Assembly (NCBI GenBank): GCA_000405605.1
Contig: ASPA01000005.1
Location: 1 to 44,406, forward strand
From: Atribacteria bacterium SCGC AAA255-G05
GTDB lineage: Bacteria; Atribacterota; Phoenicimicrobiia; Phoenicimicrobiales; Phoenicimicrobiaceae
DNA length: 44,406 nt
Direction: 5' to 3'
In this document: piece after piece, positions 22,428-35,496 of the stretch
Numbering within the stretch: position 1 is the stretch's first letter
How the letters are laid out: each line of letters starts with the position of its first letter
Notes under the pieces: model-generated
What the model was told of the DNA's origin: nothing
The model's input: the letters and a program-made list of their open reading frames with translations, nothing else
The model's database searches: none
Translations under genes and position numbers: made by a program

Positions 22428-23864
22428 TTACATTAATCCTTTTATCTTTGACTTTAGTTTCTGGTAAACTTCTATAGGAATAGGTAATGGTTTATGATTA
22501 GTTAGAATTTCTTCTACTTTTTCCCGTGCTCGAGTTCTGGTATCTTTGCTTCCTAAATTTTCCCATTCAGTTCTATGTTGACGATCTGCAAGAGTGGGGA
22601 AATATAATTCTTTACGCATATTTTGTACTGTATGCATCTCGGCAAGAAAATTCCCAGCTGGACCAACTTTAGCAATTAAATCTTCTGCCAAGGTCTCTTT
22701 ATCTACTTTAATCCCTTGCACCATTCGCATAACCATCCCTAAAATATCATTATCAATTACTGCTTTTTCAAAACTGATAGTCATACAAAACTCTAAGTTA
22801 CCAGCAGCATCATGGATAAAATTCGCTCCTGACAAAGCAACAGCTAACGCGCTGATTGCCGATTCATATCCTGCTTGAGCATCAGGAATTTTGGAATCAG
22901 ACATTCCAGCAGTAGCATAATAAGGAAGTTTTACATTCTGAGCTAATTGGGCTACACCAGCATTTATAAGACCCGGCTCCGCTCCGGCTCCAAGATAAAT
23001 ACCTTTTTGCATATCCATAATAGAAGCGGTTGAAGCATATATAACCGGAGTTCCGGGGTTAACTAACTGAGCCAGGGTTACACAAGCCAAAGTCTCTGCG
23101 TTAATTAAAACTAAATCACCTGCTAAAGTAACTGGACCAGTTGCTCCGGTTAGAACTTCACTGGGGCAAGCTACCGGTAGACCTTTACGAGCAATCTCAA
23201 TTAGAAATTCAGTATAAGTATTTTCTAATTTTAAAGGACTCATGACACAAGTAATAAAAGAAATAAATGGACATTTTTTTAACTGCTCTGCACCTCCAGC
23301 AATTTCTTCTGCCATTTTAATAGTTTCCAGTAATCCTGCTTTATCATAGATACCTCCCATAATATGTTTGGAAGTATTGGAAATACCTGCGTAAAATCTA
23401 TTTACATCAACTGTTTCTTTGGGTAATTCTGTAGGATATAAAGGTAAGAGATAAAAATGAACATTATCTAAGGCATCAACTAACTTAGCAAATTGCGCAA
23501 CATCTTCTAAAGTAGAAGGTCTCTTTTTGTTAGTTTCCCAATCAAGTACGTTTAAAACAGTACCACCAGTCCCAAAATATACATTTGAACCTTCTAAAAC
23601 AAGATTATGTTTATCTTCTCTACCGTAAAGAATCACCTTGGAAGGAGCTGTGTCAATAGCATTTTCTACCATCTTATGGGGTATTTTTACTATACGCTTG
23701 TCAAAATCAACCTCTGCTCCTTTTTCTTTAAATATATCTAATGCTTCTTTACAGTTTACTTCCATCCCTACATTTTCCAAAAGTCGAAGTGATGTGTTAT
23801 GAATATCTTTGATTCCCTCTGGCGAAAGAGGTTTATATTGACCTCCCGGTAAACCACCTATCAT
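22428..23864 (-). CDS. MttB-superfamily methyltransferase, non-pyrrolysine member (substrate:corrinoid methyltransferase; substrate unknown)
   Basis: 478 uninterrupted codons with no in-frame TAG. Family pattern throughout (LSPEGIKDIHNTSLRLLENVGMEV, FGTGG, GATGPVTLAG, YYATAGMSDSK, GANFIHDAAG, GPAGNFL). GGAGG SD. Confidence 0.9.
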   Translation of the reverse strand: MIGGLPGGQYKPLSPEGIKDIHNTSLRLLENVGMEVNCKEALDIFKEKGAEVDFDKRIVKIPHKMVENAIDTAPSKVILYGREDKHNLVLEGSNVYFGTGGTVLNVLDWETNKKRPSTLEDVAQFAKLVDALDNVHFYLLPLYPTELPKETVDVNRFYAGISNTSKHIMGGIYDKAGLLETIKMAEEIAGGAEQLKKCPFISFITCVMSPLKLENTYTEFLIEIARKGLPVACPSEVLTGATGPVTLAGDLVLINAETLACVTLAQLVNPGTPVIYASTASIMDMQKGIYLGAGAEPGLINAGVAQLAQNVKLPYYATAGMSDSKIPDAQAGYESAISALAVALSGANFIHDAAGNLEFCMTISFEKAVIDNDILGMVMRMVQGIKVDKETLAEDLIAKVGPAGNFLAEMHTVQNMRKELYFPTLADRQHRTEWENLGSKDTRTRAREKVEEILTNHKPLPIPIEVYQKLKSKIKGLM

Positions 23865-32477: not shown

Positions 32478-32666
32478 AGAATAACAAATAAATATTATCT
32501 TTAGTTTTTCTAATCTTATATCAAGGATATTATCTTATAACAGACTTTCTATTTTTCATTTCACCCGCTCCTCTTATAATTAATAAAATCCTATTACTTT
32601 TTTATTCCATACATTATCACTATAATCGTAAATTATTTTTTTATAATACTTTAAAATTTAACCTCA

Positions 32667-33376
32667 CTGAAACCCTTACAAAATAAGGCTTTCCGCCCAC
32701 ATCTAAGATAAGCCCTTTTAAGCGCCTATTTTAAAAAATATGAACAATCACTCCAGGCCACCTTAAAAAACGTAACTACGACAATATTTTTCTGAAAGCC
32801 TTATATCGCAAGGCTTTCAGACACGTAAAAATAGAGATTTTAGCCCTTTTTTGTCTCATTTTCTCTCTATTTTAGAAGCACTATCACTATCCTATATAAA
32901 AAAACGCTGAAACCCTTATGTTTGCTTTGTTTTAAAGCCTTCCTATTTTTTATTGTAAAAACTAATAATCCTCTAATTCCATATATATCTACTTCCCTTG
33001 TTTAGATAAAAACCTGTTCTCTGTTCCCCCTCTTTTTCTCCTTTACTGTAAAAAATGGTCTTCCTGAAAGCCTTGTATAATAAGGGTTTCAAAGGTAGGC
33101 TGCGTATTTTTGATTTTAAGCGACTATTTTGCCTCAACTTATGGTTTTACCCTCGGAAAATAGGTGTTTTTTGGCCTATTTTCACCCCCCCCCCAAAAAA
33201 ACCTAAAAATGGCTTCCTGTAAGGTTTACAGAATTTCGGGGAGGTCAAAAAAGACTAAAAAAAATGTCGTAATTACCGATTTTTCGAAAATTGAAGCCCG
33301 TTTAAAGGCACTCTACGTGCGTTAAAAGGATATTCCTGAAGAGGGTCTGAAAACCTTGTATAAAAAAGGCTTTCAG
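32667..33376. repeat. Array of 5 (6 with a variant) related palindromic hairpins in an ORF-free stretch
   Basis: CTGAAAGCCTT-N7-AAGGCTTTCAG is perfect at 32792-32820. Near-perfect copies at 33347-33376 and 33064-33092. Weaker copies at 32667-32694 and 32907-32940. Variant CTGTAAGGTTTACAG at 33217-33231. Spacing is 115-157 bp. Confidence 0.6.
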
Positions 33377-33411
33377 GGGGGATAAATATATTAAAATAAC
33401 AACACATCCTA

Positions 33412-33560
33412 TTTTTTCTATGGTTCAGCTTTCCATTTCGCGAGGCCTTCCTTTAGGACATCTATCTATAGCAATACCTAAAACTCAACTATCCGGTAAG
33501 GAACTCCTAAGACTCAATAGTTTGTCCGCTAAAAGTTATCGAACTATTAACCTGGTAACC
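33412..33560 (-). repeat. Internally deleted paralog (copy A) of the structured-RNA-like element at 34745-35205
   Basis: 33412-33472 is near-identical to 34745-34805, with 2 substitutions in the ~50-nt core. The next ~60 nt are diverged but alignable. 33527-33560 aligns with 35171-35205. The 306-nt core of copy B is missing. Confidence 0.55.
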
Positions 33561-33623
33561 TTCTATTTATTTAATTTAAAAACAAAAATGTTAATTGTCT
33601 AGGAAAATGGGATGGGTACCTAT

Positions 33624-34637
33624 TTATTTCAAAAGTCCTCTCTTAATCATGGAATCAACTTCATCGTTTGCACCCACATGGTGGATAGTGATATTTGGAT
33701 ATTCATTTTTGAAAACACGGAATACTTCATCTACGAAAGCTTGCCCTACAGATACGACTCCTTTGAAATCTAGAATGATTGTATTGAATTTTTCAAGACC
33801 CATTAATAATCGTTTTGCTTCTGACCTTGATACGTGAGGATCATTCGGATCCCCGCTTAACGCCACTGCTACGATTGTTTTTCCGAATCCAATCTCTTGG
33901 TCGGCGTATTGATCGAACACGCCTTTTGGTGTCTTTTTTGAATCGAGCGAGAGAACCATTTTAATGAGCGTGCCTTTTTTGAAATCTTCATTTTTTTCTG
34001 GCGAAAAAAACCAATCCTCGTTTTGAAATGTATAGAATATATCACTTGAAAGGATTGAAAAGCTATCAAACATCCTGGATGTAAAGAATATCCCCTCTCC
34101 TGTATGGTGTAATGGATCAGTTGTGAATTTACCTTTTGACAAATGGAGGATGGATTCCTTGATGGAATCTAAGTGTAGCGCTTTTTGAATTTTTTTGAAT
34201 ATCCCGATTCCATTATCCTTGATTATAATATTTAAAGTATTATTGCTAACTTCTATTTCCGTAATAATTGTGGTTCCTTTTGAATGGTCGATGGCATTAT
34301 TAAAAATCTCGGTAAAGCCGTAAGCACAAATTCTATAAATATTTTCCGGGTAGGATAAAATCATTGGTTTAACATATTTTAACCAAACTCTGTCTTCTGC
34401 TATACCAGGTTTTATTTTTTCGATGAATTGAATATATTTTCCATCAGCAAGAAAGTAATGTGTCCACCTCGTGCGCCCCGTTTTGATGATATTTCCATTT
34501 TCTACTTCTCTTATTAGGCATCGATGGGCTCTCTGCCTTGAAAATCCAAATTTCTTGGCCAGAACTATTGCAATGTCCCCTGGATGATTTTCTACATTAT
34601 CGAGGATAAATTTTTGTATAGTACTGCTTTTATTCAT
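33624..34637 (-). CDS. wHTH - GHKL (histidine-kinase-like) ATPase - STAS-like (DUF4325) fusion protein
   Basis: 337 aa. N-terminal wHTH-like 60 aa. GHKL N-box (EIFNNAIDHS), G1 (IKDNGIGI), G2-like (HHTGEGIFF). C-terminal ILDFKGVVSVGQAFVDEVFRVF is typical of DUF4325/STAS. No SD; an apparently leaderless promoter lies upstream. Confidence 0.8.
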   Translation of the reverse strand: MNKSSTIQKFILDNVENHPGDIAIVLAKKFGFSRQRAHRCLIREVENGNIIKTGRTRWTHYFLADGKYIQFIEKIKPGIAEDRVWLKYVKPMILSYPENIYRICAYGFTEIFNNAIDHSKGTTIITEIEVSNNTLNIIIKDNGIGIFKKIQKALHLDSIKESILHLSKGKFTTDPLHHTGEGIFFTSRMFDSFSILSSDIFYTFQNEDWFFSPEKNEDFKKGTLIKMVLSLDSKKTPKGVFDQYADQEIGFGKTIVAVALSGDPNDPHVSRSEAKRLLMGLEKFNTIILDFKGVVSVGQAFVDEVFRVFKNEYPNITIHHVGANDEVDSMIKRGLLK

Positions 34638-34718: not shown

Positions 34719-34744
34719 CTTGATTATTTAAACAGGGATACATC

Positions 34745-35205
34745 TTTTTTTCTACGGTTTAGCTTTCCATTTCGCGAGGCCTTCCTTTAGGACATCTATC
34801 TATTATAGTAATATCTAAAGCCTCAACCATCTAGTTAAGAAACTCTTCAGATCCTATGGTTGTCACGGTAGGACAGCCAGTTACCTGACTGCCCCCGCAC
34901 AGATCCTCTTTAGAATCTCACATTTAGCGATTCTTTTGTATAGGCTTCCGTTGCAGAAATGACGGCGCCATCTGCATTCATCTTTATTTACGAGGCTGTA
35001 TCATTCACTTTTGGGAAGTACGGTCTTCCCTATGGCCTATCTGTTTCCCTGTGTACGCTTCATCTAATGGTTACCCATTTTGATGCAACGCTTGGTATGG
35101 GTGGTTGGTTAGACCTTGCCCAGCAAGGACTTTCACCCTGCAAGACATATAAAACTTCTTGGCGCTCTTTCGCTAAAAGTTTTCGAATTATTAATCCGGC
35201 ACACC
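34745..35205 (-). ncRNA. Unclassified structured-RNA-like element (copy B), about 460 nt; strand assigned from GNRA loops
   Basis: GC-richer than its flanks. On the - strand there are two GUAA-capped hairpins (34874-34891; 35061-85 with an internal loop). Further clean hairpins at 35013-35030 and 35114-35128. No - strand ORF of 60 aa or more. The + strand ORF of copy A is broken in copy B (ATG to ACG, CAG to TAG). No known RNA family recognised. Confidence 0.4.
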
Positions 35206-35249
35206 TCGTTTCCTGTCACATTGACTGGCTGCTTCATCATTTCAAAATA

Positions 35250-35276
35250 AAAAGTCTCCTGTAAAAGGAGACTTTT
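35250..35276. terminator. Intrinsic-terminator-like hairpin, usable on both strands
   Basis: AAAAGTCTCCT-gtaaa-AGGAGACTTTT, an 11-bp perfect stem. T-run TTTTTAT on the + strand; TTTTTATTTTG on the - strand. Confidence 0.6.
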
Positions 35277-35324
35277 TATCGACCGGCATCCCGATCTAAA
35301 TTAACAAGCTTATCGTACAATTGT

Positions 35325-35352
35325 ATTATACCTTAGAGAAATGATTTGTCAA
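35325..35352 (-). promoter_or_regulatory. Consensus sigma-70 promoter on the - strand
   Basis: - strand TTGACA (35352-35347), 16-nt spacer, TATAAT (35330-35325). Both hexamers match consensus exactly. Divergent from the UDG gene. Confidence 0.55.
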
Positions 35353-35496
35353 TAGTTTAAAACTTTTCTCTTAATTCCTTGCTAAAAAGTATAAAAAAAT
35401 GGTAAAATTATAAAAATATTTAATGACTTAAAATAATTATCAGTAGTTTTCCATTAATATTTACTTCGATAATTAAAATAAAGGGGAGTAAAATTG

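Follow-up and report, generated by a model that had tools for sequence, protein, structure and literature searches.

A group II intron remnant in a transposase-derived repeat: nested mobile DNA as the probable nature of a structured-RNA-like locus in Atribacterota

The window, the 44,406-nt stretch of DNA analyzed here, lies on contig C5 of an Atribacterota genome (1.65 Mb, 63% complete) and carries two related sequences on either side of a single gene. They raise the question of whether the longer one, copy B, represents a new kind of structured RNA. A sequence-only reading had described copy B (34745-35205) as an unclassified element of about 460 nt and copy A (33412-33560) as its miniature, in which both ends were kept and the interior was lost. 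The analysis gives a different answer: the copy B region is, with high probability, a decayed group II intron sitting in a repeat derived from a RAYT transposase gene, that is, nested mobile DNA and not a new RNA class.

Both copies lie where that reading placed them, and the sharing of both ends is seen in the sequence as well as in alignments. On the minus strand, the near-identical core (34746-34803 in copy B, 33412-33467 in copy A) matches at 54 of 56 positions, leaving the two substitutions that had been counted, and blastn aligns copy A with the 3' part of copy B at E = 2e-25. The diverged but alignable stretch covers ~58 nt 5' of the core and is 71% identical, and the shared sequence at the other end is a 5' piece of ~42 nt with 74% identity. 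Between these ends copy B holds 306 nt on the minus strand (34862-35167, with limits taken from the intron boundaries given below) that are missing from copy A; the earlier limits of 34865-35170 are correct within a 3-nt junction ambiguity (GAA/GAC). This block is indeed richer in GC (0.471) than the repeat parts (0.33-0.36) or the window (0.352), and, on the minus strand, the complete element scores better in folding than shuffled sequences do (z = -3.6). The base changes between the copies that turn ATG into ACG and CAG into TAG are also as described. Copies A and B alone share a derived GGCCTCGCG variant of the core, which points to local gene conversion as the probable source of the near-identical 56 nt.

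The identity of the 306-nt block was revealed by a scan of the whole window with Rfam at gathering thresholds. RF02005 (group II intron D1-D4-6) matches the minus strand at 34885-35133 with 98.1 bits (cut-off 49, E = 1e-26), and model positions 1-225 are aligned end to end. The element that had been called unclassified thus has a confident match to a known family, the outcome that the sequence-only reading had itself named as refuting it. Rfam also placed RF02510 (PYLIS_3, the pyrrolysine insertion element of mttB) at 22805-22904 on the minus strand with 62 bits (cut-off 38), which suggests a trimethylamine methyltransferase gene with an in-frame UAG in this genome.

The anatomy of the remnant follows the minus strand. 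Its 5' end, GAGCG, lies at 35167, and domain 1 extends from 35167 to ~34899, as placed by RF02005 and by alignment to a related intron on contig C3 of the same genome. Domain 6 occupies 34865-34898, with a GUAA tip and a bulged A at 34869 in a fold with a 2-nt bulge, and the 3' end, GAC, lies at 34862, seven nucleotides past the bulged A. It reads GCGGGGGCAGUCAG-GUAA-CUGGCUGUCC-UA-CCGU-GAC and is homologous to the domain 6 that RF00029 places in the C3 intron. GAGCG shows one deviation from the consensus GUGYG, and GAC stands against AY at the 3' end; both boundaries are fixed by ectopic intron copies and by empty sites. Both GUAA hairpins singled out in the sequence-only reading exist: 34874-34891 forms the tip of domain 6, and 35061-35085 corresponds to the GNRA-capped hairpin of the RF02005 consensus, in domain 1. 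RF00029, the D5/D6 model, finds no match in copy B even at E <= 10.

The C3 intron shows what has been lost. It is 90-91% identical to copy B (the 91% figure applies to domain 1) and consists of domain 1, further RNA domains, an ORF for a reverse transcriptase/maturase of 428 aa, a canonical 34-nt domain 5 (GAGCCCAGUGCGGUAAUUCCGCACGCUGGGAUC) and domain 6. Its D5/D6 model match of 34.9 bits is under the 40-bit cut-off, though the domain 5 sequence looks canonical. The encoded protein (IEP) matches RVT_1 with 121 bits and GIIM with 21 bits, under the cut-off of 23, and aligns with group II reverse transcriptases in the PDB at E = 5e-41, its PDB matches being about equally distant. In the alignment, domain 1 of copy B is joined straight to domain 6, and domains 2-5 and the IEP gene are missing; no reverse transcriptase/maturase is encoded in copy B. 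Copy B follows the C3 intron as far as GAGGAUCUGU and then jumps to domain 6; the junction falls within a UCUGU that both sides share. Domains 2-5 and the ORF were therefore lost together when the sequence between two UCUGU(G)CGGGG stretches was deleted, and the intron that is left should be unable to splice. Having no domain 5, the remnant cannot be expected to be catalytically active. Its EBS1 loop, CAUUUCUGCAAC at 34950-34961 on the minus strand, was located by aligning 14 related introns and has decayed from GUUUUCGCAAC, the form that pairs with GCGGAA of the repeat; the pairing of the loop UUUCUGC in copy B with its own flank GCGAAA is no longer perfect. The 306-nt block is thus shown to be a degenerate ORF-less group II intron and not a functional member of its class.

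Copy B is one of five full-model RF02005 matches in its genome. The other four score higher, and three of them have reverse transcriptase ORFs of ~430-460 aa and D5/D6 matches. Other intron lineages of this genome start with GUGCG or GUGUG at the homologous position where the lineage of copy B and C3 has GAGCG, which places the 5' splice site at 35167. When the domain 1 sequence of the C3 intron was used as a query against 30 genomes of the family, 16 of the 18 intron copies with a 5' flank proved to sit at the same spot of the repeat (GCGGAA/AACC, the slash marking the insertion point), where TTTTAGCGGAA is followed directly by GAGCG. All full repeat copies of the window's own genome have TTTTAGCGGAA joined to AACCTATAGG at this junction. 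The two remaining introns (L098 and L100) are ectopic, with unrelated flanks up to GAGCG or AAGCG, and so define the 5' end.

The basis of this specificity is visible in domain 1. Across the 14 aligned introns, one hairpin loop changes in step with the six nucleotides upstream of the intron: a GCGGAA flank goes with the loop UUUCGC, ACGGAA with UUUCGU, which is a compensatory change, and the flank ACUAAA of the ectopic L100 intron with UUUAGU, so that this flank is fully complementary to its changed EBS1. The covariation identifies EBS1 and IBS1 and confirms the intron boundary. The two ectopic introns differ in the internal loop of domain 1, though no convincing EBS2/IBS2 pairing could be derived. 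A fixed target and covarying sequences together indicate that this intron lineage homes into the repeat through EBS1-IBS1 base pairing.

Copy B is not alone in its decay, and several independent deletion forms of the intron are found at the same repeat site. Two repeat copies on contig C28 are interrupted at this point by a mini-intron made of the first 91 nt of domain 1 followed by the end of domain 4, domain 5 and domain 6. Its deletion junction is identical in three genomes, in different flanks. A mini-intron devoid of EBS1 and most of domain 1 would be unable to reverse-splice, and its presence in different flanks in three genomes would thus reflect spread with the repeat at the DNA level. 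At C28:1-2340, two units of repeat plus mini-intron, 97% identical to each other, bracket a Schlafen/AlbA_2-HATPase_c_4 gene in a repeat-gene-repeat layout that mirrors that of the window. On the same contig, a long-form repeat is closely preceded by an ORF of 446 aa (C28:11944-13284, minus strand) whose N-terminus is reverse-transcriptase-like (...LHSAWKE) and which may represent a further retroelement of this island.

The repeat itself is a family in its own right. A search for further copies, as the sequence-only reading had proposed, found many in this genome and its relatives. The own genome has nine full-length and about 15 partial copies of the A-type repeat (blastn, nhmmer), and 27 of 41 related genomes have matches, among them nearly every genome of the genus and members of several further genera in the family; most of these genomes have several to two dozen among the matches listed. 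Copies are ~186-250 nt long and diverged, with a mean pairwise identity of 77%, so that the repeat may be long inactive. A pattern made from the core had 0 matches in IMG/VR. Spacings of 1.3-1.9 kb between matches on one strand are frequent, and in well-assembled pieces the repeats separate units of 1-4 co-oriented genes; the metagenome-assembled genomes are fragmented at exactly these repeats.

The origin of the repeat is revealed by contig C40, where what appeared to be another copy (model positions 3-185) turns out to form the 3' end of a gene for an IS200-like Y1 transposase of 223 aa (C40:4031-4702; PF01797, Y1_Tnp, 61 bits), here termed RAYT. Translated in the RAYT frame, the repeat consensus ends in TFSGKPIGSEEFLNQMVEALGIIIDRRPKGRPRKMES and a stop, and the RAYT C-terminus is TISGKPIGSKEFFNHMLETLGVTINTRSKGRPRKKKN and a stop; they are 68% identical (E = 1e-15), and the nucleotide alignment agrees. 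The tail motif is present even in RAYT paralogues that are only 34-40% identical to the C40 protein, and so it belongs to the RAYT protein family. This conservation in distant paralogues suggests that the derivation ran from gene to repeat. By homology, the repeat appears to be the last ~150 nt of a RAYT gene together with its 3' REP hairpin.

The REP sequences complete the comparison. The C40 RAYT gene is flanked upstream by a 29-bp REP doublet that forms a perfect hairpin and downstream by a lone REP, AAAAUAGGAUGUGUCCCUAUUU, and each RAYT paralogue of the family has an inverted REP pair of its own. A 5' inverted REP with at most three mismatches is found in 19 of 56 repeat copies, and about a dozen more, diverged, were recognized by eye, for a total of roughly 30; roughly 40% of the copies are without it and have the 3' REP only. 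In long-form copies a linker runs from the 5' REP into RAYT ORF sequence, and the two REPs are ~210 nt apart with a spacer derived from the RAYT ORF. The long-form repeat, copy A included, is therefore an internally deleted RAYT unit, comparable to a long REPIN or MITE. REP and REPIN hairpins fold well. Free-standing REP hairpins are rare, with only 5 motif matches genome-wide, 3 of them in or beside repeat copies, which sets the family apart from an ordinary population of short REPs. Shared REPs and many copies in many contexts suggest that RAYT may have mobilized the repeats. A matching RAYT gene was found in only 4 of 30 family genomes, one of them partial at a contig end, among metagenome assemblies that are fragmented. 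At C40:4700-4900 (locus L118, 2214-2412), the RAYT unit adjoins tRNA-Sec, with the perfect doublet hairpin (-32 kcal/mol as DNA) between them. The family contains at least five further RAYT subfamilies (loci L121, L122, L125, L130 and L145, in related genomes), bracketed by their own inverted REPs, such as AATAGGGACAGACACCTATT, GGGGACGGTTCT and GGGGTCAGGTCT; some of these REPs also adjoin A-type repeats.

Both copies in the window can be read in these terms, all features lying on the minus strand. Copy A is an uninterrupted long form at 33391-33629 (nhmmer 154 bits, model positions 7-186). It begins with an inverted REP at 33600-33629 that overlaps the stop codon of the gene between the copies, continues through a linker at 33572-33599 and a remnant of the RAYT gene tail at 33418-33571 (alignment to the RAYT 3' end), and closes with a decayed 3' REP at 33391-33417. 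The empty intron target, GCGGAC/AAAC, lies at 33524/33523. In copy B, the 5' part (35168-35209, repeat positions ~10-51, from nhmmer and alignments) ends in the IBS1 GCGAAA (35173-35168), and the 3' part (34727-34861, repeat positions 48-186, nhmmer 123 bits) comprises the near-identical core and the remnant of the 3' REP hairpin at 34727-34753. No inverted REP lies upstream, and copy B is thus 5'-truncated. The kinship with mobile DNA proposed by the sequence-only reading is borne out by both constituents, a group II intron and a RAYT-derived repeat.

The surroundings of the two copies have features of their own. Upstream of copy B, a promoter scan found a perfect sigma-70 site, TTGACA-16-TATAAT, at 35352-35325 on the minus strand (12/12). 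About 50 nt past it, just upstream of copy B, Rfam alignments show a strong hairpin with U-runs on both sides (35277-35249, minus strand), and the stretch 35236-35352 looks like a short terminated leader or a bidirectional terminator. The near relative G006 has an insertion or duplication of 216 nt within the matching stretch. Downstream of copy A lies a gene-free stretch of 0.9 kb (32478-33390) with other repeats in it, for example CTTCCTGAAAGCCTTGTATAA...GGGTTTCAAAGG hairpins and a C9A7 run, and pieces of this stretch are ~80% identical in G010, G006 and G003.

The gene between the copies (33624-34637, minus strand) encodes a 337-aa HTH/GHKL-ATPase/STAS-like protein with Pfam matches to DUF4325 (49 bits) and HATPase_c (26.2 bits, just under the 26.4-bit cut-off). 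A promoter-like site at 34672-34644 on the minus strand (11/12 match) lies between the repeat and its start codon. Direct repeats bracketing a single gene, as the sequence-only reading had observed here, are a general habit of the repeat family, whose copies lie between accessory and defense genes in the same orientation. In the same genome they accompany GmrSD, a 3'-5' exonuclease, AbiEi/AbiEii, a Schlafen/AlbA_2 ATPase, AIM24, a hydrolase and a UPF0236 transposase, which makes the DUF4325 gene only one of many cargos. The same gene lies between two intact repeats in G024, a member of another genus, and many other copies flank different genes. The gene downstream of the C59 copy is unique to its own genome and is on that account marked as accessory.

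Several comparisons bear on how cargo is exchanged. In G024, a block consisting of the 3' part of the repeat, the promoter, the 337-aa gene and copy A is 87% identical to the window over 1463 nt. It lies between AbiE cassettes, in a different context, and its upstream repeat is uninterrupted and represents copy B with the intron site empty. In G006 the 5' repeat part is the same and the intron is 99% identical, and identity drops to 77% exactly at the 3' splice junction, beyond which the cargo genes differ. Crossover or conversion with an intron-less repeat would produce this pattern. Synteny of the window with its relatives ends ~130 nt upstream of a uracil-DNA glycosylase gene (35362-35493 and leftwards), and a hypervariable slot lies upstream of that gene across the genus. 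Depending on the genome, the slot holds PolX, a LexA-like regulator with restriction-modification-like genes, AlbA_2 or lipoproteins, and it appears to be a hot spot of integration or replacement. The repeats probably now act mainly as portable homology for cassette swapping. A bolder proposal, which we consider unlikely, is that RAYT-derived repeats are the junction elements of an integrase-free cassette system and the introns its specialized parasite. A gene between a 5' inverted REP and a 3' REP would mimic a RAYT unit, RAYT would move the REP-bracketed gene as single-stranded DNA, and the homology of ~190 nt would also permit cassettes to be swapped by recombination. RAYT transfer and recombination together would build the accessory and defense arrays of Atribacterota, and intron fossils would serve as barcodes of cassette history.

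Other explanations of the locus have to be weighed against this body of evidence. One view makes copy B the full-length form of a new structured-RNA or self-propagating element, with copy A as the miniature left by internal deletion. It draws on the two shared ends and on an interior that folds well, and we give it almost no credence. The interior is group II domain 1 plus domain 6 with defined splice boundaries, the deletion forms at one site are several, and uninterrupted A-type copies number more than 50 against a handful that are interrupted; related introns outside the repeat have the same GAGCG 5' end. Because of these dozens of uninterrupted copies and the introns outside the repeat, the polarity has to be reversed: copy B began as an A-type repeat, into which a group II intron was inserted at a precise position. 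Ends kept and interior lost describes the locus one level down, in the deleted RAYT unit that is the long repeat. The structured-RNA signal, with its GNRA hairpins and GC-rich stems, comes entirely from the intron, and RNAalifold finds 0 consensus pairs in 48 copies of the repeat (on 11 copies the result is weak, -5.6 kcal/mol). This absence of pairs also counts against the repeat being a selected cis-regulatory leader, small RNA or micro-protein of ~45 residues, a view that we judge to be very improbable despite two attractions: a start codon usually follows the repeat on the same strand, 6-90 nt downstream, and about three quarters of its copies keep a 45-codon frame open to a conserved stop. 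The compensatory base changes that the sequence-only reading had asked after are absent from candidate stems of the repeat, among them, by eye, the stems of a long hairpin given by a RIBOSUM-scored fold. Rfam returned nothing meaningful for copy A (33391-33629) at E <= 10, and repeat alignments show no covariation. Substitution rates at codon positions 1, 2 and 3 are even (0.119, 0.141 and 0.114) and some copies have frameshifts, which marks the frame as an ORF remnant free of coding selection. The micro-ORF, though often open, has no codon-position signature, and the element is non-coding, as had been argued. Nor is the repeat a promoter, having no sigma-70-like site within it and a downstream gene with a promoter-like site of its own.

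The arrays themselves invite comparison with integrons. The repeat could be the attC-like site of an integron or CALIN array and the intron an attC-homing intron: the arrays run in one orientation with 1-4 accessory, toxin-antitoxin or defense genes per unit, and attC sites and CALINs are known to harbor group II introns (PMC7923331). We nonetheless see very little chance of this being correct. An integron integrase (TIGR02249) scores above the cut-off in 0 of 26 genomes. The nearest IntI-like protein, a tyrosine recombinase of 358 aa (G010:C36:15249-16061, locus L079), reaches 143 + 105 bits against a cut-off of 265, and its contig has no A-type repeat among the matches listed. With its 186-250 nt, the repeat lacks an attC-like fold: only a short terminal hairpin folds, and end-to-end palindrome pairing is absent in 48 copies. 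It is homologous to the RAYT gene tail and REP, and the intron recognizes it by plain EBS1-IBS1 pairing.

The nested mobile DNA that we favor would have been built in three layers. A lineage-specific RAYT unit of the IS200-like type would have given rise, by internal deletion, to a non-autonomous repeat of ~190-250 nt, in which a short linker joins a 5' inverted REP to the final ~150 nt of the transposase ORF and a 3' REP hairpin follows. This repeat would have multiplied across one Atribacterota family and would now lie, co-oriented, between accessory and defense cassettes, with copy A as an example. A group II intron with an endonuclease-less reverse transcriptase would then retrohome into a single fixed position in the repeat through pairing of its EBS1 loop with GCGGAA in the remnant of the transposase tail. 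Finally, copy B would be a repeat that received the intron and subsequently lost domains 2-5 and the ORF, leaving domain 1 fused to domain 6, presumably a dead ribozyme.

This explanation removes a false candidate for a new RNA class and illustrates that two selfish elements can mimic one. It also documents a REP/RAYT system in an uncultured, deep-branching phylum. The non-autonomous partner of this system can be seen to be a transposase unit with its interior deleted, a point of relevance to the origins of REPINs. Across several genera, a lineage of group II introns uses the repeat as its standard landing pad. The repeats delimit strain-specific defense and toxin-antitoxin cassettes and show signs of swapping. 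If RAYT does move such units, this would amount to integron-like gene shuffling without an integrase.

A comparison with known systems shows how familiar components are combined here. PATEs are MITE-like derivatives of IS200/IS605 that keep only the hairpin-bearing ends of an element with a Y1 transposase. The Atribacterota repeat is likewise a short non-autonomous derivative of a Y1-transposase element, but its end hairpins are inverted copies in the REP/RAYT style instead of same-strand LE/RE hairpins. Fragmented and ORF-less bacterial group II introns, with the IEP and catalytic domains deleted, reportedly feature in the 2002 survey of Dai and Zimmerly, in intergenic or mobile DNA. Copy B resembles them in the internal deletion of its IEP and catalytic domains and in its location in mobile DNA. 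The usual ORF-less introns, however, keep domain 5 and can splice with help in trans, whereas copy B keeps complete domains 1 and 6 and has no domain 5.

Group II introns specialized on the sites of cassette arrays, truncated copies included, have been described for attC sites and CALINs (Sonbol and Siam 2021, PMC7923331); named cases are the IIC-attC introns (e.g., S.ma.I2) and UHB.I2, H.ha.F1 and H.ha.F2 in integrons or CALINs (PMC7923331). There, as here, the site on which an intron lineage specializes is repeated and intergenic, the cassettes on either side are rich in toxin-antitoxin and defense genes, and truncated copies are common. The target in Atribacterota, in contrast, is a RAYT-derived repeat and not an attC hairpin, recognition is by a 6-nt EBS1-IBS1 duplex in former coding sequence, and no integron integrase was found above the cut-off in 26 genomes.

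REPIN-RAYT systems, well described in Proteobacteria (Bertels and Rainey 2011, PMC3116915; PMC3337134; PMC5581495), share several traits with the repeat family. Both have an IS200-like Y1 gene, one of this type in the window's own genome, flanked by inverted REPs, many non-autonomous copies bounded by the same REPs in inverted orientation, and a cognate REP for each RAYT paralogue. In Atribacterota, however, the REPs are ~210 nt apart instead of a few tens of nucleotides, the spacer between them consists of the final third of the transposase gene in decayed form, many copies have no 5' REP, and the copies lie in one orientation between accessory cassettes. No target-site signature of the repeat was identified, and a full-text search of the literature found no paper linking RAYT/REPIN elements with group II intron homing. 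What distinguishes this system from those known is its long ORF-derived spacer, its position between accessory cassettes and its role as an intron landing pad in Atribacterota.
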